From the sequence record OR234014.1: a stretch of 64,000 nucleotides of DNA; one strand, 5' to 3'. Origin of the DNA: Staphylococcus phage SAC. The position numbers were made by a program, and so were the translations under genes. This document shows, one piece after another, positions 2,465 through 60,349 of this stretch. Within the stretch, counting starts at the first letter, position 1. Every line of letters starts with the position of its first letter. Under the pieces are notes generated by a model, which was not told where the DNA came from, made no database searches, and worked only from the letters and a program-made list of their open reading frames with translations.

Positions 2465-3479
2465 TTACATCTTCCTTAGTCTCTTTATTAGTAGAGCTAA
2501 GCTCTTCGTAGTAATCTTGTAATGCTTTAAACTCTTCTAATTGAGTAGTGTCTACTTTTGTATTGTTTAAAGGTGCATACTTATGAGGGAAATTCTCGTG
2601 GTAAACTCTACTAAATAATTCTAAGTATAATTCATGGTTGTCCATTAATGTCGGTACCCAATCTTTATCATATTTTTTAATTTCTTCACCATTTAACGTA
2701 ACATAATTACGCCATGTTCCTTTAGTAATTAAACCACGCTCAACGGCTTCTTTATAGATAGTATGATAAGGGTCAACACCGTTTAATTGAATAGTATCTT
2801 CATCAGAACCTACTTCATAACCTGATAATAAATCAACTTCCGCTTTTTGACCAGGTCTAGATAGCTTAGACTTCTTAGTCTCAATACGCATAACATGACC
2901 TTTATACGTAGGTTTACCTGTCATAGCATCATTCTGTTTTAATTCTGATTCTTTACCTTTAGATACTTTAATACGTAAACTAGCACCATGTTCAAAAGCT
3001 CTTCCTCCTGTAGACTTAATAGGGTCATCATAAGGATTACTCATATTTAAATTATCACGTGCTTGGTTAATAACAATTAATCCTGTATTTGTATCATTAA
3101 GCTTAGGTGAAATAGCATTTACTACTTTTTGTGTACTTGTCGCTTTCGTTCCAAGTTTTTTATGGTCTACTCCTGCATCAATTTCATCTTGTGTACGTGT
3201 AGCTCCTAGGGAATCCCAAATGAACAAAATAGGTACGCCTGGTGCTTTCTCATTAAATGTATCAATCCAGTATTCTAACTCTTTACCTACGGTTTCTACT
3301 GATAGTTCAGTAACATTTTTAAGTCTACCTTCACCTGACTGTATTGAGAACAATTTAGATACGTCTACACCTAACTGTTCCATACGTTGGTTATCCGCTG
3401 TTCCTTCAATGTCAATCCAAACTGTAATAACTCCTAATTGTGTTGCTACTCTAGATAAGTGTACTGCAAAAGTCGATTT
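2457..3479 (-). CDS. recA: RecA/UvsX-like recombinase, exon 2 (begins KSTFAVHLSRV..., before the annotated Met)
   Basis: The frame is open from 3479. KST completes the Walker A motif GLTGSG|KST with exon 1. ILFIWDSLGAT is a RecA-like core. The intron ends in G at 3480. Confidence 0.75.
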   Translation of the reverse strand, partial: KSTFAVHLSRVATQLGVITVWIDIEGTADNQRMEQLGVDVSKLFSIQSGEGRLKNVTELSVETVGKELEYWIDTFNEKAPGVPILFIWDSLGATRTQDEIDAGVDHKKLGTKATSTQKVVNAISPKLNDTNTGLIVINQARDNLNMSNPYDDPIKSTGGRAFEHGASLRIKVSKGKESELKQNDAMTGKPTYKGHVMRIETKKSKLSRPGQKAEVDLLSGYEVGSDEDTIQLNGVDPYHTIYKEAVERGLITKGTWRNYVTLNGEEIKKYDKDWVPTLMDNHELYLELFSRVYHENFPHKYAPLNNTKVDTTQLEEFKALQDYYEELSSTNKETKEDVNE

Positions 3480-4839
3480 CAGTTACTACCCCTAGTTTCC
3501 TAGTACTTTAACACTAACTTAATAGTGGGCTTAGACTATATCTTTAATTGCCTGGTATGCAAGTTTTTGTTTTCGGTCTATATGAATATTATTATCTCGA
3601 TATAATGTTTTCATTAATTTTTTAGCTTTTTTACCTGTATAACCTATTCTATAAGAGGTAGAAGTTTTAGATATTGTAGGACATTTAAAACCTAATAAGT
3701 CTTCAATCCAACTACCTACTTCTTTTAAAAATTCAGGATGATTGTTAACTAAAGTTATTGACCATCTATTATTATAACATCCAATAGAACCATCACCATC
3801 AAACAATCCTCTTAAGTAATGTTTCCTTAAATCATAAGGTATGTCTTGTGTTAACCAATCTGTTTTTTTAGTTTTCATAGGTATTATACCATATTTAGCT
3901 AAATCATTACATAGTTTTTCATCGGTAACACTAAAAGTATACGTAGAATTTTCATTTTTTATATAATCTCTTTTTCTATGAGATTCATAAATTTTACTGT
4001 CTGAATTCAATTCTTTTTGAACTCTTTCTACTATTTCTTTATCAATTAACTCTAGTGTTAAGTAACATTGACCTTCTCTTCTATATCTAACACAACCGTC
4101 AGCCATCAATAAACCTAAAATATATGCTTTCTCTTCAGTATCAATTACTTCAAAGAAATCTTTATTAATATTTCTATTAACTCTCCTAGGTTGATAGTAA
4201 GATGTATCAATACCAAAGTCTCTTAATATTTTACTTATCTCTCTTGCATGTGTTGTATAGACTGCTTTTATCTCTGCAATAGTCATAGACTCCTCAGTGT
4301 ACATTCTTAAAATATCTTGTTTTTGTTTACTAGTCCATCTTCTCTTGCTATTTGTGTCAATATTAAACTCATCTAGTACTTTTTTAATTGTAAAGTAATG
4401 TGCATTATACTTTTTTTGTATTTCACTAAATTTCTTACCTTCTTGAAAGGATTTCACTATATCTTGTTTTTCTTCATTAGACCATACTCGTTTTACCATA
4501 TTATACTACTCTCCATTTTAAATAGATTTCGTAGGCAATTCCCACGTACTTCGGTTTCCCTACTCTACTCAGTTACTCACTAATACTTCTCAATATTAGC
4601 TACCTTTTCGATAGTCGTTGAACCTTCTCCATTTTACAGGAGCTTGGATGCTGATTACCTACACTATATAATATAACAGTTTAATAACTCGTTATACCAT
4701 ATAACTCATATACTTGTTATTTTTAACATTCACGCTTACCGTTTCCAGTTACGTTGTAGTTAACAAGTCTTTAAGGCTTCCCAGCAATTCACGTGGATTT
4801 GTAATAACTCATTATAAGCCATTGTGGCTATTTAAGGTA
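3480..4839 (-). mobile_element. Group I intron in recA carrying a LAGLIDADG homing endonuclease gene
   Basis: R element GTTCAACGACTA (plus-strand 4611-4622, reverse complement) and S element AAGATATAGTCT (3526-3537, reverse complement). The 5' exon ends in U (GGT). The internal guide sequence GCCAC pairs with exon AGTGGT. Omega-G lies at 3480. Confidence 0.75.
3531..4499 (-). CDS. LAGLIDADG homing endonuclease (two-motif), intron-encoded
   Basis: Two LAGLIDADG motifs: AYILGLLMADGCV and YLRGLFDGDGSI. Confidence 0.8.
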   Translation of the reverse strand: MVKRVWSNEEKQDIVKSFQEGKKFSEIQKKYNAHYFTIKKVLDEFNIDTNSKRRWTSKQKQDILRMYTEESMTIAEIKAVYTTHAREISKILRDFGIDTSYYQPRRVNRNINKDFFEVIDTEEKAYILGLLMADGCVRYRREGQCYLTLELIDKEIVERVQKELNSDSKIYESHRKRDYIKNENSTYTFSVTDEKLCNDLAKYGIIPMKTKKTDWLTQDIPYDLRKHYLRGLFDGDGSIGCYNNRWSITLVNNHPEFLKEVGSWIEDLLGFKCPTISKTSTSYRIGYTGKKAKKLMKTLYRDNNIHIDRKQKLAYQAIKDIV

Positions 4840-5052
4840 ACCACTACCAGTTAATCCGTAAACTTCTGTAAGTCTTCCTAGAGGAATACCTCCACCTAAA
4901 ATTCTATCATATTGTGGAATCATAGTAGGAATGATATTCTTAATATCTGCTCTATTACTATCTGATAGTAAAGTTAAACCTAATTCTTTACCTAAGTCAA
5001 TAGTATTTAAATTTGTAGTATCTACTTCTTTACCTTTTTTTGCTCTAGCCAT
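4840..5052 (-). CDS. recA: RecA/UvsX-like recombinase, exon 1
   Basis: ...ILGGGIPLGRLTEVYGLTGSG ends inside the P-loop. The annotated YLK-stop tail is intron read-through. Confidence 0.75.
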
Positions 5053-6867: not shown

Positions 6868-7557
6868 CTATATAACTTTGAAACTGTCAATATTATTTTT
6901 AATATATTCCGTTTTTTGTTTGTACTGCTCTTCAGTTAGTTTATCTGATTCATAGTAGTCTTTGATTTGTTGTAAGGCTAATTTATACTTAATATATCCT
7001 TTATACGAATTAAATTGCTTTATTAACTCTTCGTTGTATTCTACCATATCATTATATGTTAATCCTATCTCTATATCTGCATCTATAGGATACTGTCTTA
7101 ACTCACCATTAATTTTTATTTTTAAGAAATCATAAGGAAGGTTCTCCATTACATGGACAATAACTTTAGCCATAATATTAACTTCTTCAGGAGGTGAGTC
7201 TACTACAATACTATCATGAACAGTAGCTACTAACTTCGATTTCATATTCTTATTTTGAATAAAGTCGTCAATATAAGTAATAGCCATGTTAGTAAGGTAA
7301 CCACCTGTACCTTGAATAATCGTGTTAAAGGACTGTCTAAGACCCTCATTTTTAATCTTTTTATCTCTAGATTGTGCTGAGTGTATATATCTTCTGTGTC
7401 CATTCATTGTTTCTACATATCCATGTTTTTGAACAAACTCATGAGTTTCATCTATAGACTTCTTAATAGCAGGTTTATTAGAATAAAACTTATTAAATAT
7501 TTCAGTAGCTTCATCAACTGTCATATTATTTTTACCTGCAAACGAAAACTCTGACTC
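6868..7557 (-). CDS. polA: DNA polymerase I family (PolA), exon 2 (begins ESEFSFAGKNN before the annotated Met)
   Basis: Contains motif C (KLVATVHDSIVVD). Upstream in frame, ESEFSFAG follows omega-G at 7558. Confidence 0.7.
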   Translation of the reverse strand, partial: ESEFSFAGKNNMTVDEATEIFNKFYSNKPAIKKSIDETHEFVQKHGYVETMNGHRRYIHSAQSRDKKIKNEGLRQSFNTIIQGTGGYLTNMAITYIDDFIQNKNMKSKLVATVHDSIVVDSPPEEVNIMAKVIVHVMENLPYDFLKIKINGELRQYPIDADIEIGLTYNDMVEYNEELIKQFNSYKGYIKYKLALQQIKDYYESDKLTEEQYKQKTEYIKNNIDSFKVI

Positions 7558-8637
7558 CGTTTATACCCTCGGTTTCCCGATATTTATTAGGGGACTAGAC
7601 TATATCTTAAGTAAATACGTTACTATCTACTTCTAGGCTATTCCATGTAGGTATGAGCTACATGTACTCTACTCGGTTATATTGCAATAAGCCCTCTCGG
7701 CGTAAAGCTCACCTTTTGATAGTCGTTCGATAAAATAATTTAAGTGTTTAAGTGTAATCAAATCGTTCTCTTTTCTCTATTTTGAATGTAATCCCATAAC
7801 AATCTTCACCGGTTTCCATTTTTCTAAAGTTAGTGCCTGACGTAGGTATATTTAGTCTCTTTAGTAGCTTAGTTTTTACTCTATCATAATCAATTTCCAC
7901 ATGATTCTTATAAGCAACATAGTGAGGTGCATAAAGTTTAGAAGGGTTTTCTACAGGTTGATAATTATATTCTTGTAGTGTTTTAAAAACCCAGTTCTTA
8001 TGATGTTTTCTTTCCCCTCTAAGAACTGCAGAAATATGGCTTTGAATTAAGTTATGTTCCTTAGCAAATTTAGACTGATTGAAGAATATATATTCTTTAC
8101 CTGTAGGGTCTATACCTAATATCTTTTTACTTCTTGAAGGTACAAATCCTAAGTTCTCTTCTCTAGTAGCCCATTTACATTTATCTAAGCTATATACTTT
8201 ATTACCTAGTTCTTTAATATCCTTATCTAACACTAACTCACCATTTTTATACTTCTCTAAACTCCAACCATCAATTAACTCTACATCCTTAAGAAAGTTA
8301 TTAAAATTATGCCATCTATCGTCTACTGTTATTCCTAGTAATCCATAATATTTATATTCCTTACATTTAGGATTATAACATCTGTCTATCATATGAGACC
8401 ATACATGAGCTAATTTAGAATATAGCTTATTGTGATTATATCTTTCTCCTATTTTAAATTCTATTTAAATCATCCTTACTTATTAAATTACACTTAAATT
8501 ATTCTACACAGGATTAGCATTTTAAAGCCTTCCCTGTTAGCATAGTTCTTAACTACCATTTCCTGTAGCTCCTAACGTGAACTATACACCCTATACTCAA
8601 TAGGTTTACCTAGTTTTACTACGGCTATATTTTGTTA
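7558..8637 (-). mobile_element. Group I intron in the DNA polymerase gene carrying an HNH homing endonuclease gene
   Basis: The internal guide sequence GCCGTA pairs with exon TACGGT. R-like CGAACGACTA (7722-7731, reverse complement) and S element AAGATATAGTC (7597-7608, reverse complement). The 3' end GGGTATAAACG is identical to tail-tube intron 1. Confidence 0.75.
7748..8392 (-). CDS. HNH homing endonuclease (I-HmuI-like), intron-encoded
   Basis: NPKCKEYKYYGLLGI...SLDKCKWATREENLG matches the HNH_3-type motif of phage homing endonucleases. Confidence 0.7.
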   Translation of the reverse strand: MIDRCYNPKCKEYKYYGLLGITVDDRWHNFNNFLKDVELIDGWSLEKYKNGELVLDKDIKELGNKVYSLDKCKWATREENLGFVPSRSKKILGIDPTGKEYIFFNQSKFAKEHNLIQSHISAVLRGERKHHKNWVFKTLQEYNYQPVENPSKLYAPHYVAYKNHVEIDYDRVKTKLLKRLNIPTSGTNFRKMETGEDCYGITFKIEKRERFDYT

Positions 8638-29551: not shown

Positions 29552-29798
29552 CAATTATGTTACGATTAGGTTCGTTACTCCTAACCTTCTTGTAGTCTCC
29601 TACAAAGTTCAGACTATATCTTAACCATATCTAATGAGACTTAGGTTCTCCCTGTTTCCAATCACTTGATTGTACATAATAGTCGTTGCACCTTCCTAGT
29701 AATTTATTAAGCTTGGCTCATGATTGTCTCAAATGAGAGAGTTCCCATGAATTAAAGGAGTTACACTTATAATATTTCTACTATAAGGGGCAAAATTT
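29552..29798 (-). mobile_element. ORF-less group I intron in the helicase Walker A codons
   Basis: Exon 1 ends ATNAG (GGT) and exon 2 starts KTEV, restoring GxxxxGKT. R element GTTCAACGACTA (29680-29690 region, reverse complement) and S element GATATAGTCTG (29610-29623, reverse complement). The 5' end resembles the nrdE intron. Confidence 0.7.
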
Positions 29799-30236
29799 AC
29801 CTGCATTGGTAGCTTGCTTACATATACCATTATAATTGACTAAACTATTAAACACAGCTTCATACTGATAGTCACGTAATGTAATCTTACCTACGTTATT
29901 ATCTAGTAGCTGTATTTCATCATCAATATCTTCTTCAGCTAAAAAGCTTTCAGATTTTTCATCAATAATTTCGTATTGAAAGTTATGTCTTGATTGTAAC
30001 TCACCTAGTAATGTTATCATCTTAGGTAACAACCCACTAGGGAATTTGTTCTCAGCATAATCGTAGAAATCCACATAACCATCCCACACACCTCGTTTAA
30101 AAGCTAAGCTATGTTGATAGCCCTCTTTCTTAGCTCCTAACGTTTTATGAACACGCTTAAGTATGATATCTTTAATATACCCGTCACTTTCATCAAAATC
30201 TACATATGTATATATATTCTGTTGTCTTAATTGCAT
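29799..30236 (-). CDS. SF2 helicase, exon 1
   Basis: RDYQYEAV (Q/Ia-like motif) followed by ...KQATNAG (first half of Walker A). The annotated KFCPL-stop tail is intron read-through. Confidence 0.7.
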
Positions 30237-50970: not shown

Positions 50971-51840
50971 CTAAAAATTAGATTCTAATAATTGTTTTAA
51001 TTTTCTACCTATTGCTTTCCCTGTTTCATTAGGGTTTTTACTTTTAGGTACTTCTATGTTATATTTAAGATTCTTTGGTTGATGGTCGTTTTTTAGAGCA
51101 TGTCTAGGCATAACATCACTGCCTCCACCTCCGCCACCTATGAACTTGTCTGAACCTTTCATAATACTGGCAATCATAGTATCCCAATTACCTGCTGTTG
51201 CATATTCATGAACACCATTGTTGTGTCTCATATCGTGTAAGTTCTTTTGTCCTTTGTTGTAGAAGTTGTCTCTAATCCATTTAGCACCACCAACAATACC
51301 CAAACCATAGTTAAAACCATTATTAGGATTGTTATCAAAAGCACCTATACCGAACCAGTTACCTTTGTTAGGGTCTCCTCCTTTGGAAAGATTTGATGTT
51401 CCCCAGCCTGTCTCAACAGCACTATGTGCTACTAAATACCTTGGGTCAAGTCCTGACTCTTTACCTGCTTTCATATAAAGCTCACCTAAACCACGCATTT
51501 TAGAATTACTAGGTGCTTGAGACTCAATCCATTTATTTAACATTTCGGCGTTTACACCTTTAGCAGTTTTACCTAAGTCATGCTTAGTTACGTCTTTATC
51601 CGTAAAGTTTTTACCATCAAGGTAGTCAAGTGTTCCTCCTGATGAACTGTCGTTAGAACTACTACCTTTATTTGTTAGGTTATCTGCTAAATGGTCTAAG
51701 AAATGTGAGTATACTGTTACATTTCCTTCTCTAGAATCATTATTCTTTTCTCTTTTTTCTTCTGCTTTTTGCCTGTCTTTACTTTGTGATTTATCATTAA
51801 TACCATAAGTTAAAACATATAAACAATAGTATACTTTCAT
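50971..51840 (-). CDS. N-acetylglucosaminidase-like peptidoglycan hydrolase (start uncertain)
   Basis: AHSAVETGWGTS...NWFGIGAFD is a glucosaminidase-like motif. The hydrophobic N-terminus MKVYYCLYVL may be spurious. Confidence 0.5.
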   Translation of the reverse strand: MKVYYCLYVLTYGINDKSQSKDRQKAEEKREKNNDSREGNVTVYSHFLDHLADNLTNKGSSSNDSSSGGTLDYLDGKNFTDKDVTKHDLGKTAKGVNAEMLNKWIESQAPSNSKMRGLGELYMKAGKESGLDPRYLVAHSAVETGWGTSNLSKGGDPNKGNWFGIGAFDNNPNNGFNYGLGIVGGAKWIRDNFYNKGQKNLHDMRHNNGVHEYATAGNWDTMIASIMKGSDKFIGGGGGGSDVMPRHALKNDHQPKNLKYNIEVPKSKNPNETGKAIGRKLKQLLESNF

Positions 51841-51989
51841 ATATAACCTATCGTATTAGTTATGTATATTTATTTAATAACAAGTTTACCTTACAAAATA
51901 AGAAAGGTTTATATGCAGAAGTAGAATACAAATTTTAATTATTTATATATTTTAACAATGTTTAAATATACACGCTACTGTATATTCTC

Positions 51990-52358
51990 TAGTTATTTCT
52001 AGACACTACCTTTCGGTACGTGCGCAGACTATTTGTTATCCCTATTAGTATAGGGTGAGTATTTTTCTTCCACCAATCACTTGTGGCTTTACTTCCGTCA
52101 CCTATACGGAATAGTCGTTGAACGTGTTCCGTAGACCTTTCAGGTCTTTAGGACTTTCGATGCTATACACCCATTGTACTTCTCCTTAGGATTTAACCTT
52201 AGAGTATCTAACTAATTTTTTCTGATTTCTCAACATTCAAGCCTAGTCTTTCGACTTACTTTGTAGTTTAGTTAGCTTTAGTAGTTTCATAGCAGTTAAC
52301 ACTCGGTACTTACAGATTGCTCTATAAGCAAGGCAATTAGTATATAACTAATTATGTT
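51990..52358 (-). mobile_element. group I intron-like element at the 3' end of the TMP gene
   Basis: R element GTTCAACGACTAT (52111-52123, reverse complement), S-like AATAGTCTGCGC, GAAA-tetraloop hairpins, and a 65-nt block (52216-52280) nearly identical to tail-tube intron 1 (58072-58135). The internal guide sequence GCCTT pairs with exon AAGGT. Confidence 0.5.
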
Positions 52359-57278: not shown

Positions 57279-57398
57279 ACCTTTATGCTTATTTTTTCTA
57301 GAATATTTTGTTTTATCTTTTTTAATTCTTGTTGTTGGTTTAATTTTCCATGTTGCCCTTGAATTACTTACTTTACCTATTGTTTTCCTGTTTGTCAT
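57261..57398 (-). CDS. small basic protein (45 aa)
   Basis: GGAGG RBS six nt upstream of the ATG at 57398. Reads MTNRKTIGKVSNSRATWKIKPTTRIKKDKTKYSRKNKHKGIDNYK. Confidence 0.3.
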   Translation of the reverse strand: MTNRKTIGKVSNSRATWKIKPTTRIKKDKTKYSRKNKHKGIDNYK

Positions 57399-57451
57399 TT
57401 AGTACACCTCCTTTTATTTTTAATTATAATACAGTACTTCTAATAAAACAA

Positions 57452-57487
57452 GTATAAAAAAAGACCTAACTTTTATTGTTAGGTCTT
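57452..57487 (-). terminator. rho-independent terminator after the tail-tube gene
   Basis: Stem AAGACCTAAC/GTTAGGTCTT followed by T7 on the minus strand. Confidence 0.6.
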
Positions 57488-57497
57488 AATACGAAAT

Positions 57498-57524
57498 TTA
57501 AGTTCTAGCCTTATCTGATGCTGT
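57498..57524 (-). CDS. tail tube protein, exon 3 (TASDKART-stop)
   Basis: Follows omega-G at 57525 (...GGGTATAGAGG|ACAGCA). It completes a 142-aa protein. Confidence 0.65.
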   Translation of the reverse strand, partial: TASDKART

Positions 57525-57822
57525 CCTCTATACCCTATCTTTCGATATATTTTAAAGGGAGTAGACTATACCATAATCTTAATGTGTAACTAAGACTCAC
57601 TTATTATAGTCGTTGAAGCTTCCCACTCTCGTAGGCTTGCCTGCGTATCATCTATTTTACTGTACTTAGGGTTTAACCTTATACTATACTAGATATTTTT
57701 TCTGATTTCTCAACATTCAAGCTTACCCTTTCAGGTTACTTTGTAGTTATCTAGTCTTTAAGACTTTCACGCAATTTAAAGTGTTTTCTATGCTTGTCAC
57801 CAAACATAGCCTCTATTAGTTA
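57525..57822 (-). mobile_element. group I intron 2 of the tail-tube gene (no ORF)
   Basis: The 5' end TAACTAATAGAGG resembles intron 1. The internal guide sequence GAGG pairs with exon CCTT. R element GCTTCAACGACTATAA (57585 region, reverse complement). S-like element TATAGTCTAC (57555 region, reverse complement). Confidence 0.65.
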
Positions 57823-57896
57823 AAGGTAGCTAAACTCAATTTCTTCTGTTACAATTTCATTTGTCTGCCAAGTCTCGTTGTAGTTGTTTGCTGAAC
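57823..57896 (-). CDS. tail tube protein, exon 2 (74 nt: C-SANNYNETWQTNEIVTEEIEFSYL)
   Basis: Open frame flanked by intron ends. Joining with exon 1 creates a TGT Cys codon across the splice junction. Confidence 0.65.
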
Positions 57897-58198
57897 CGTT
57901 TATACCCTATCTTTCGATATATTTTAAAGGGACTAGACTATACCATAATCTTAATATGTAACTAAGACTTACCTATTATAGTCGTTGAACCTTCTCCATT
58001 TTACAGGAGCTTGGATGCTAATTACCAATTATGTAGTACTTAGGATTTAACCTTATACCATCTAACTAATTTTTTCTGATTTCTCAACATTCAAGCCTAG
58101 TCTTTCGACTTACTTTGTAGTTTAGTTAGCTTTACGGTGTTCTAGCAATTTAAGGTATTATTCAATGCACATCACTGTACAAGGGGTCTATTTAGTTA
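57897..58198 (-). mobile_element. group I intron 1 of the tail-tube gene (no ORF)
   Basis: The internal guide sequence GACC pairs with exon TGGTT. R element GTTCAACGACTA (57981-57992, reverse complement). GAAA-tetraloop hairpins. The 3' end GGGTATAAACG is identical to the pol intron. Confidence 0.65.
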
Positions 58199-58526
58199 AA
58201 CCATGGTAACTAATAATAACTTGTTTCGTTAAGTTATCTACTACTAAGATATCAATAATATCTTTCTTAAGAATTTCTTCACCAAGTGAAGCATATCCTA
58301 AATCTGCGAAGTTTTCTTTTTTCATACGTAAACGTTCTAGTGTAATTGTACCAGCATATTTTAAGTAAACATGCTCTTGTGGCATAATACTACCAATTTC
58401 GTATACACCAGTAGTTCCGTATTCACGTTGACCTTTAGCAGATTGTGCTCTTCCAACTGGTTTACCTTTTACCATTAGCATAACGGTATTACCAGTATGG
58501 ACAGACTGCTTAGCCTCTGAAGCCAT
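58199..58526 (-). CDS. tail tube protein, exon 1 (109 codons plus 1 nt)
   Basis: MASEAKQSVHTGNTVMLMVKGKPVGRAQS...ISYHG lies directly downstream of the sheath gene. The annotated LTK-stop tail is intron read-through. Confidence 0.7.
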
Positions 58527-58588
58527 ATTAATTCACTCTCCTATTAAATTTAATAGGAGTACCTAAACTAGGTACTCCTTGTCCTAGT

Positions 58589-60349
58589 TTAGGCTCTTAA
58601 TGTTTGTTGTTGGTATACCAAGCTAACAGAAATTTTCTTGAAGCTTCTGATAGGGTATACAACCATTGAGATTCTAGCTTCATTACCCTCGACAATAACT
58701 TGTACGTCTTCAGGTGGGAAGTCTTGAATTTCGTTATCTCGTTTCTTGCGTCCTAAGAATGACTGTACAAAGTCTTTGATAATTGAAGCACTTGTATTGA
58801 TAGTACGAGTACCAATAAAGTTATTTTCAAGCTCAAGTTTTAACTCAGAACATAAGAAGTCATTTGCTTCCCCAACAGCCATTTCTGACTTAACAGGGTC
58901 ATTTTTATCATTAAATGTCGTAACATCGTCTGTTAATCTAAAGAATGTATTAGCTCTATTACGAACATATTGTACGGTGATAATACCGTTTTCATTTAAC
59001 TCATCTAAGTCTAATGATTCATATAATTGGTCTACATTATTAATACGTAGTTGCTTAAAGGTAATAGACTCACCTATAGCTAAACCACTTACCAAACCTC
59101 CGATAGCAGAAGCTACCATATAAGCTGGTACATGTAACTTACGACCATTGTCCATTGTGAATATACCTGAGTTAGCTACTAAAGCAACTCGTGGGCTAGA
59201 TAATGATGATTGACGACCAAATAATTGTTCTTTCGTTTCATTAAATCCTCCACCTAGAATAGCACGCATAGGTTCACCTGCATCAGAACGTTCTTTAACA
59301 AAAGAAGCTACTTCTGCATGAACAGATTGTTTAGAGGATAGTGGTACCATGTAGTATCCACCTTCATGTGCAAATTTTTCGATTTTATCCGCCCATGTAG
59401 CAGGAGGTTCACCATTTGTACCACCTGAAAGTTTTGTTAATTCAAAAGGTGTGATTTCTTGAATTGGGGACACAGCTGTTACAGTAGCAGATTCTTCATG
59501 TGCGTCTACTTCTACGTTTTTAGGTGCTTGTTCAGATACTAATCGTTCAAATGAAACAAGTCCGTTATAGGCTGTTTGTTTCTCTAAATCACCAAATACT
59601 GCTTTTACATACTCAGCTTTATCCTTAATGTTAACATCTGTCATAGGGTCTAATAAGTAAGACTCTAAGTTCTTATCTCCAAAAGGTGATAACTTAGCTT
59701 CAAAATCAGGTAATTGGTTAATATCGTTAATGATGGCATTAGTAGTAGCGTAAGCTCCTCCTGTTAAGTCATAAGACTTAACTTCTGTGCTATTAGCTTT
59801 TAATACTAATCTTTTTGCTTTTTGTGTCTCTTTATCGTGCTCTACAGAAAAAGTAGCTGTACTTTCACTACCTTTATATTTGATAGTGAAGATATTACCA
59901 ATATTATCATATGTTTCATTAAATCTATCATCTTGGAAGATTAAATGTAAACGTAATGAATTACTGATTGTATTTTTTTCTAATCCTACTTGAATGTTGT
60001 TAGCTACGTTACCATAAATCTGTGAAGTAACTTTCAATCCGCCTACTTCAGCTGTAGCTGGTTTAGCATCCTCTACACGCATAGCAAAAATCTTACCTGC
60101 TGTGTATTGTGGATTAGAACCCCAAGCTAATTCAATTGCATCAAGTAATTCACCTGAGCGGAATAGTCTTTTAGCTTGTGCGTAGTTTCTTAATTCATAT
60201 ACGGTATCAGGTTTACCACCTTCAGCTTGTCCAATTAAACATAAAATCTTTTCACTGGAGCTAGCTGATTTACCGATACCTGTACTGTCTACATTAATGA
60301 CTGCATGTGGACGAGTGACAGGTCTTCGTGGAAACGGTTCAACTGCCAT
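58589..60349 (-). CDS. tail sheath protein
   Basis: 586 aa. MAVEPFPRRPVTRP... is strongly similar to Twort-like myovirus sheath proteins. Confidence 0.8.
   Translation of the reverse strand: MAVEPFPRRPVTRPHAVINVDSTGIGKSASSSEKILCLIGQAEGGKPDTVYELRNYAQAKRLFRSGELLDAIELAWGSNPQYTAGKIFAMRVEDAKPATAEVGGLKVTSQIYGNVANNIQVGLEKNTISNSLRLHLIFQDDRFNETYDNIGNIFTIKYKGSESTATFSVEHDKETQKAKRLVLKANSTEVKSYDLTGGAYATTNAIINDINQLPDFEAKLSPFGDKNLESYLLDPMTDVNIKDKAEYVKAVFGDLEKQTAYNGLVSFERLVSEQAPKNVEVDAHEESATVTAVSPIQEITPFELTKLSGGTNGEPPATWADKIEKFAHEGGYYMVPLSSKQSVHAEVASFVKERSDAGEPMRAILGGGFNETKEQLFGRQSSLSSPRVALVANSGIFTMDNGRKLHVPAYMVASAIGGLVSGLAIGESITFKQLRINNVDQLYESLDLDELNENGIITVQYVRNRANTFFRLTDDVTTFNDKNDPVKSEMAVGEANDFLCSELKLELENNFIGTRTINTSASIIKDFVQSFLGRKKRDNEIQDFPPEDVQVIVEGNEARISMVVYPIRSFKKISVSLVYQQQTLRA

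Follow-up and report, generated by a model that had tools for sequence, protein, structure and literature searches.

The closest described system is orf142 of phage Twort, a gene that Landthaler and Shub reportedly found in 1999 to contain three introns, self-splicing in vitro and spliced in vivo. Its GenBank record (AF132670) gives the coding sequence (cds) as a join of four exons with the remark 'contains group 1 introns'; as reconstructed here, the exons measure 345, 41, 23 and 20 nucleotides (nt) and the introns 325, 252 and 286 nt, inserted at cds sites 345, 386 and 409. In PMC5526547, tmpA of Twort is mentioned as a gene with introns, and PMC6445280 describes non-coding tail-tube introns in kayvirus 812 (two), A3R, 676Z, Fi200W and P4W. 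We analysed a 64,000-nt stretch of Staphylococcus phage SAC (OR234014.1), called the window below, in which a preliminary description had proposed that the tail-tube gene (57498-58526) is split into exons of 328, 74 and 24 (+3) nt by two group I introns devoid of open reading frames (ORFs). Judging from the sequence, we put at about 90% the probability that two such introns split the gene and are real and spliced. The split gene is more ordinary than that description implied, with precedents published for Twort and the kayviruses, and knowledge of the phenomenon, tiny exons included, goes back to the 1999 work on the orthologous Twort gene. The parallel with Twort that the description drew is in fact closer than claimed: orf142 also encodes 142 amino acids (aa) when joined, and is an ortholog with 85% identity over the first 115 residues (tblastn).

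Joined on the minus strand, the three exon segments listed in Table 1 form a 429-nt ORF encoding 142 aa, the C-terminus of which reads ...ISYHG-C-SANNYNETWQTNEIVTEEIEFSYL-TASDKART. The cysteine codon (T/GT) arises across the exon 1/exon 2 junction, and U is the last base of both exon 1 and exon 2. The predicted spliced junctions are CCATGGTT followed by GTTCAGC (exon 1/2) and GCTACCTT followed by ACAGCATC (exon 2/3); a single predicted tryptic peptide of 38 aa, QVIISYHGCSANNYNETWQTNEIVTEEIEFSYLTASDK, covers both junctions of the joined protein. A tblastn search with this protein matched 754 phage records. The uninterrupted Kayvirus genes (G1 ORF105, Team1, and fRuSau02 'tmpA') match it gaplessly over residues 1-142, with 95.1% identity. 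When the G1 coding sequence is aligned in a splice-aware manner, gaps fall at cds nt 328 and 401/402, and the second junction was set at nt 402 because U·G occupies the cleavage site only if the exon ends in CCUU. In PDB 8q01 (11 entries), the 142-aa 'tail tube protein' chain matches the joined protein with E 3e-88 and 95% identity over the full length, and residues 103-142, the last 40, are identical to that chain. Neither the 142-aa nor the 112-aa protein was assigned to a Pfam family; the tail-tube identification therefore rests on the tblastn and PDB matches, from which we conclude that the gene is the tail-tube gene (tmpA), ortholog of Twort orf142. Over 57400-58700, identity is 100% with Staphylococcus phage StAP1 (KX532239) and 99-99.8% with Stau2, RP15, Romulus, Remus, PM56 and PM93 (all Silviavirus; Twortvirinae, Herelleviridae). 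The two-intron arrangement is 99-100% conserved in StAP1, Stau2, Romulus, Remus, KSAP7/11, RP15, PM56 and PM93, which are independently isolated, viable phages.

The nature of the two intervening segments was assessed with a local Rfam scan of 57400-58300 (901 nt), in which the gathering score of the group I intron family RF00028 is 50 bits. Intron 2 matched RF00028 at 57832-57543 (minus strand) with 50.7 bits (E 8.8e-12), at or above the gathering score, and intron 1 at 58208-57915 (minus strand) with 37.8 bits (E 6.6e-8); both matches are full length, covering model positions 1-253. Together with the gapless alignment of the joined protein and its 40 identical terminal residues, these scores go far beyond what chance would produce. 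Intron 1 opens with UAACUAAAUAG, which brings an in-frame stop three codons in (LTK, then stop), and intron 2 has an in-frame UAA at its very start. Each intron terminates in G (...GGGTATAAACG and ...GGGTATAGAGG), as do all of their homologs, and an R-like element UUCAACGACUA and an S-like element GGUAUAGUCUA were found in both. No ORF longer than 34 aa lies inside either intron, so neither contains the endonuclease ORF by which a mobile intron is recognized. The two introns, which we regard as paralogs, are 79.7% identical over 300 nt (blastn), and their differences sit largely in compensatory pairs. On all these points the preliminary description was accurate: the end of the 112-aa ORF, every exon coordinate, the cysteine codon, the restored protein, the U at the 5' exon ends, the terminal G, the P1 pairings described below and the R- and S-like elements were recovered as given.

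Covariation was examined on an alignment of 12 introns, comprising the two tail-tube introns and 10 homologs (from HM01, RODI, V1SA09, HN01, RSM-J51Sa, Golestan-100, Quidividi and PV172160), which represent five Twortvirinae genera or groups. RNAalifold recovered P2, P4, P5, a four-helix P5 extension, P7, P8 and P9 from this alignment, with compensatory changes at 34 of 66 pairs. When a structure of 67 pairs was specified (P2-P9 and the P5 extension, with the P3 pseudoknot strand and the outer P6 pairs), 98.3% of the positions were paired across the 12 introns, and both sides were altered at 36 of the 67 pairs; the P3 pseudoknot helix was 93% paired. None of 500 shuffles reached the observed values, and sliding the partner by 1-3 columns left 31-41% paired, with at most five such compensatory pairs. 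MAFFT did not align the exon/P1 part correctly, nor most of the shorter Golestan-100 intron, and P1 was therefore tabulated on its own. Folded as a single sequence, the minimum free energy structure of intron 2 contained P1, P2 and P4-P9 (z = -3.2), and that of intron 1 contained P1, P2, P7 and P8 (z = -2.5). Both tail-tube introns have a P5 extension of about 130 nt, and in both P3' abuts P8. On this comparative evidence, they possess the conserved core helices P3-P8 with the P3/P7 pseudoknot.

Table 1. Position of the tail-tube exons, introns, intron helices and adjoining features in the window
Feature	Position	Strand	Remarks
Tail sheath gene	60349-58589	minus	586 aa; directly precedes the tail-tube locus
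Shine-Dalgarno-like AGGAGAG	58536-58542	minus	9 nt 5' of ATG; read from the sequence
112-aa ORF	58526-58188	minus	protein ends ...ISYHGLTK, then stop
Exon 1	58199-58526	minus	328 nt; cds nt 1-328; codons 1-109 and first base of Cys110
Intron 1	57897-58198	minus	302 nt; after cds nt 328; RF00028 match
Intron 1, guide GACC	58188-58185	minus	
Intron 1, P2	58181-58166	minus	
Intron 1, P3	58157-58153/57974-57970	minus	
Intron 1, P4	58147-58142/58021-58016	minus	
Intron 1, P7	57983-57978/57941-57936	minus	
Intron 1, P8	57969-57947	minus	
Intron 1, P9	57931-57905	minus	
Intron 1, terminal G	57897	minus	
Exon 2	57823-57896	minus	74 nt; cds nt 329-402; GT of Cys110 to Leu134
Intron 2	57525-57822	minus	298 nt; after cds nt 402; RF00028 match
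Intron 2, guide GAGG	57813-57810	minus	
Intron 2, P2	57806-57791	minus	
Intron 2, P3	57783-57779/57602-57598	minus	
Intron 2, P4	57773-57768/57647-57642	minus	
Intron 2, P7	57611-57606/57569-57564	minus	
Intron 2, P8	57597-57575	minus	
Intron 2, P9	57559-57533	minus	
Intron 2, terminal G	57525	minus	
Exon 3	57498-57524	minus	24 nt (TASDKART) and TAA stop
Terminator-like hairpin and T-run (intrinsic type)	57461-57487	minus	10 nt 3' of the exon-3 stop codon

Comparison of 14 introns by blastn yielded two groups. The first, which we call lineage A, occupies cds sites 328, 339, 366 and 402; its members are 70-91% identical to one another, have the P5 extension of about 130 nt in common, and include introns 1 and 2 of the window. 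The second, Twort-like lineage occupies sites 345, ~355, 374, 386, 391 and 409 and includes the three Twort introns (I1-I3). For Twort, MR003 and CIFT21, the exon boundaries were adjusted manually and checked again, and the site-402 boundary of Quidividi was moved by one base by hand. In the window, the intron 1 guide GACC pairs with the exon end GGUU and the intron 2 guide GAGG with CCUU, the last pair being U·G in both. Within lineage A, the guides at sites 328, 339, 366 and 402 are GACC, GUUG (HN01), GUUC (PV172160) and GAGG, and the matching exon ends are GGUU, CAAU, GAAU and CCUU, with the terminal U·G in all four. The P1 guide thus covaries with its exon target at four insertion sites. 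Alleles with an empty site carry GGA-U in place of GGU-U at 328 (MR003, CIFT21), and UUA in place of CUU at 402 (G1, PM28, HM01); these are different synonymous codons, and the exon bases that pair with the guides are therefore specific to the intron-bearing alleles.

The proposed course of events is as follows. One late transcript would run from upstream of 58526 through the exons to the terminator-like hairpin that follows exon 3, and each intron would fold independently into a canonical core (P3-P9) with its large P5 extension. The guide would pair with the last four exon bases to form P1, with U·G at the cleavage site; guanosine would attack after U58199 and after U57823, and the freed 3'-OH of the exon would then attack after the terminal G. 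The ligated messenger of 328 + 74 + 27 nt would be translated into the full 142-aa tail-tube protein. Unspliced RNA (1029 nt) would give the 112-aa product (...HGLTK), and removal of intron 1 alone a product of 134 aa, ended by the in-frame UAA at the start of intron 2. A first alternative is that real introns are present but do not splice in a simply constitutive way, owing to a protein cofactor, to skipping of exon 2 or to retention of intron 2 (134 aa), perhaps with a regulatory or structural role. The 74-nt exon 2 is indeed flanked by two introns that are about 80% identical, a product joining exon 1 to exon 3 can be computed (113 aa, ending ...SYHG-YSIR), and exon skipping in Twort orf142 has been reported, as cited in passages of PMC11878797 and PMC10136302. 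We nevertheless regard this alternative as unlikely: no sequence feature demands alternative products, the exon-2-skipped protein would be deprived of 33 conserved residues, and the guides GACC and GAGG differ at two of four positions, which disfavours pairing of the intron 2 guide with exon 1.

A second alternative is true truncation of the gene, with a functional 112-aa ORF or a gene in decay, and with the downstream segments left as relics between dead introns. The database entries would agree with this, as the inspected GenBank records of this arrangement annotate the 112-aa ORF alone, those of Stau2 and the re-annotated Romulus name it 'truncated capsid protein', and the 112-aa sequence is present in NCBI and UniRef under several accessions. 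The tail tube, however, is an essential core gene of the Herelleviridae, and the phages that carry the split version are viable; moreover, the PDB tail-tube chain has 142 aa. Of the 99 nt in exons 2 and 3, 17 are not the same as in G1, which amounts to 13 synonymous codons and no non-synonymous one, while exon 1 shows 26 synonymous and 7 non-synonymous changes; exons 2 and 3 are under purifying selection. The intron helices retain compensatory changes, which would not be expected of dead relics. Finally, only two terminator-like hairpins were found in 57300-58700, one after the sheath gene (58579-58555) and the other after exon 3 rather than after the 112-aa ORF, with no such site between exon 1 and exon 3; the Romulus record annotates a terminator at the equivalent of the second. 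We consider true truncation very improbable.

Translational bypass or frameshift, inteins or group II introns in place of group I are hardly credible, having nothing in their favour beyond the split coding sequence itself: the gaps of 302 and 298 nt carry in-frame stops at or near their starts and match RF00028 over its full length, which led us to reject bypass and group II introns (group II models matched only at E ~5-7), and they carry no ORF, which led us to reject an intein. The restored 142-aa frame, the RF00028 matches, the conservation of the protein, the covariation and the selection on exons 2 and 3 therefore support the reading of a tail-tube gene split by two group I introns, in keeping with the exon sizes first proposed.

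A number of points weigh against this reading. The RF00028 matches anticipated by the preliminary description were obtained for both introns in the local scan, but in scans of the whole window (at the gathering threshold and at E<=0.001) neither tail-tube intron was reported, and the helicase intron considered below came out alone. Even locally, the score of intron 1 (37.8) lies under the gathering score of 50. P1 comprises just four exon pairs. The inner P6 hairpins of introns 1 and 2 are out of register and were excluded from the covariation test, and the 12 aligned introns are kin, so that fewer independent events lie behind them than the cell counts suggest. A collection of ~15 billion proteins lacks the exact 142-aa sequence and includes the 112-aa form, listed with several NCBI accessions; nobody, therefore, has annotated the long form, and by the same token no assembled spliced transcript supports it. 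What we propose about splicing, autocatalysis and its efficiency we infer from the established chemistry of group I introns.

In the records of StAP1, Romulus (both records), KSAP7, Stau2 and RODI, all of which have the two-intron arrangement, only the 112-aa ORF is annotated, under the product names 'hypothetical', 'capsid protein', 'truncated capsid protein' or 'tail tube'. The major tail-tube protein is thus misrecorded as 112 aa in a group of S. aureus phages that are therapeutic candidates, among them StAP1, Stau2, Romulus, Remus, KSAP7/11, SA11, SAP6 and phiIPLA-RODI. For Romulus and Remus, the portions of PMC7497331 and PMC11878797 (Table S1) that list introns name terL, portal, helicase, RNR, DNA repair and DNA polymerase, and omit the tail tube. 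Sites 328 and 402, the intron lineage and the missing annotation in the inspected records of the same arrangement appear to be unreported, as far as the inspected records and the secondary listings go. The whole-window Rfam miss probably explains why annotation pipelines overlooked the tail-tube introns. In a 24-kb multi-locus Rfam scan, the copies at sites 328/402 were likewise missed in RODI, V1SA09 and HN01, and found in MR003 and HM01; the miss at genome scale arises because filters drop the introns, although intron 2 passes the gathering score locally. ORF-less phage introns of lineage A are probably under-counted. A corrected annotation bears on proteomics searches, structural work and marker-gene phylogeny, and according to PMC7409376 the tail-tube tree was the one discordant marker in the reclassification of the Herelleviridae. 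Two 'promoters' derived with MEME in the Romulus record JX846613 (21794-21823 and 21914-21942) correspond to window positions 58119-58148 and 58000-58028, inside intron 1; they are probably false positives produced by the repeated intron module.

Homologs of the two introns, 70-100% identical and belonging to lineage A, were found at sites 328 and/or 402 in phiIPLA-RODI, HN01 and V1SA09 (Kayvirus), HM01, MR003 and PV172160 (Silviavirus), RSM-J51Sa (Baoshanvirus), Quidividi (Sepunavirus) and Golestan-100, phiIPLA-RODI having exactly the two-intron arrangement of the window. They are not annotated as introns in the records inspected. Taking both lineages together, the inspected loci contain at least 10 distinct group I sites (cds 328, 339, 345, ~355, 366, 374, 386, 391, 402 and 409) within 82 nt, that is, between nt 328 and 409 of a 429-nt gene. 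Up to four introns were found per tail-tube gene (HM01, CIFT_MFB_MRSA21), with three each in MR003 and PV172160, and internal exons go down to 17-18 nt in the intron-rich Twortvirinae genes. Over cds nt 1-280, the kayviruses RODI, V1SA09 and HN01, all with the site-402 intron, show 0-1 differences from the intronless G1 versus 37 from the window; over exon 3, they show 1 difference from the window versus 7 from G1. This pattern looks like a co-conversion tract that an inter-genus intron transfer may have left. The distribution of sites might fit movement of introns within the gene, for instance by reverse splicing, or inter-genus transfer by recombination with co-conversion of the flanking exons. 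That the final 100 nt of the tail-tube gene in Twortvirinae form a natural landing pad, with ORF-less introns moving between nearby sites, is a tentative proposal to which we give less than even odds. If true, endonuclease-independent intron transposition could be studied here in a natural setting of unusual clarity. The site-hopping pattern, with its covarying guides, is a natural data set of use for work on intron mobility.

Several intron-rich relatives possess an additional ORF directly 3' of the tail-tube gene, among them RODI ('Ioh', 2118-2855 of locus L005) and HM01 (2591-3322 of locus L008). These two ORFs show weak, sub-threshold Pfam matches of the I-HmuI NUMOD-like type (E 2e-4 and 1e-3), and the extra downstream ORF may be a free-standing homing endonuclease. 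No counterpart of it was found in the window, where the genes 3' of the tail-tube locus correspond to G1 ORF293 and ORF093.

Other intron-like sites were noted in the window. A candidate for a second unannotated tail-gene intron is located at 51803-52353 (minus strand), with flanking ORFs that end at 52296 and start at 51840. An ORF of 988 aa ('DNA transfer / tail lysin', a tape-measure homolog) and one of 289 aa ('tail tip') align consecutively to G1 ORF001 (1352 aa), and between them lies a weak RF00028 match (52353-52004, 24.8 bits, E 4e-4). The candidate and tail-tube intron 1 have the 130-nt P5-extension module in common (88% identity). Joining after U52354 and G51803 is in frame (...KNKKGNI/INDKSQ...), the junctions being candidates; no close intron-less allele was found for this segment. 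Fragments of a tail-tube intron were also detected by blastn on the minus strand at two further places. One (4601-4789) lies between a 74-aa fragment (4828-5052) and a 322-aa ORF (3531-4499), and the other (7558-7625) just 5' of the ORF for the C-terminal part of DNA polymerase (6868-7524) and downstream of a 214-aa ORF (7748-8392). The 74-aa fragment, with its glycine-rich GLTGSG motif, we interpret as the N-terminal end of a RecA-like DNA repair protein; the 322-aa ORF we take to be a putative LAGLIDADG-type endonuclease, and the 214-aa ORF, presumably, a putative HNH-type endonuclease. By position, the two fragments would correspond to the published DNA-repair and DNA-polymerase introns, and Rfam at E<=0.01 reported nothing in either region (3531-5052 and 6868-8392). 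A strong RF00028 match at 29589-29808 (minus strand; 91 bits, E 5e-22) falls, by coordinate correspondence, between the StAP1 'DNA helicase (I)' ORF and the next ORF; to judge from this position, it is the helicase intron already listed for Romulus and Remus in Table S1 of PMC11878797. In addition, the first 25 kb of the window align to StAP1 KX532239 at 99.4% identity in 5 pieces, over a subject span of 29.2 kb. About 4.2 kb of StAP1 are without counterpart there, and we suspect that this shortfall reflects a difference in mobile-element content.

The introns of the window can finally be placed among those described. As in Twort orf142, several ORF-less group I introns are clustered in the last 100 nt of the cds, internal and terminal exons are tiny (74 and 27 nt, compared to 41, 23 and 20 nt in Twort), and at every junction the 5' splice site follows a U and the intron finishes with a G. 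The two genes differ in the number of introns, two versus three, and in their sites, 328 and 402 versus 345, 386 and 409; blastn detected no similarity between the introns of the window and Twort I1-I3, and the P5 extension of about 130 nt sets the former apart. We take the Twort introns to belong to subgroup IA2, of which the helices P7.1/P7.2 are presumably typical. As P3' abuts P8 in the introns of the window, there is no room for P7.1/P7.2.

The type found in kayvirus 812 resembles the present one in that two ORF-less group I introns lie in the tail-tube gene and natural intron-less variants exist. It differs in its sites (~355 and 391) and in its introns, which are of the Twort-like lineage. 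Phages of the 812 type have, in addition, a putative endonuclease gene alongside (orf104 in 812), whereas no endonuclease-like gene was found in the window between exon 3 and the conserved downstream genes; in a section of PMC6445280, the ORF downstream of the 812 tail tube is described as a putative intron nuclease. Introns in the tail-tube gene are annotated in some records, with two Intron_gpI features in PM28 and four in CIFT_MFB_MRSA21. The 812-type intron of PM28 near site 355 (1856-2160 of locus L011) ends in A, not G, under spliced alignment, and the same section of PMC6445280 gives '1 sub, 1 ins' in the protein upon intron loss; the true splice sites of PM28 and 812 near 355 probably differ from those of the simple alignment. 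Further afield, the introns of T4 td, nrdB and nrdD and of the SPO1 DNA polymerase gene are likewise phage group I introns in conserved genes. These reside in genes of nucleotide metabolism or replication, one per gene and often with a homing endonuclease ORF, whereas the tail-tube introns are ORF-less, paired and inserted in a late structural gene.

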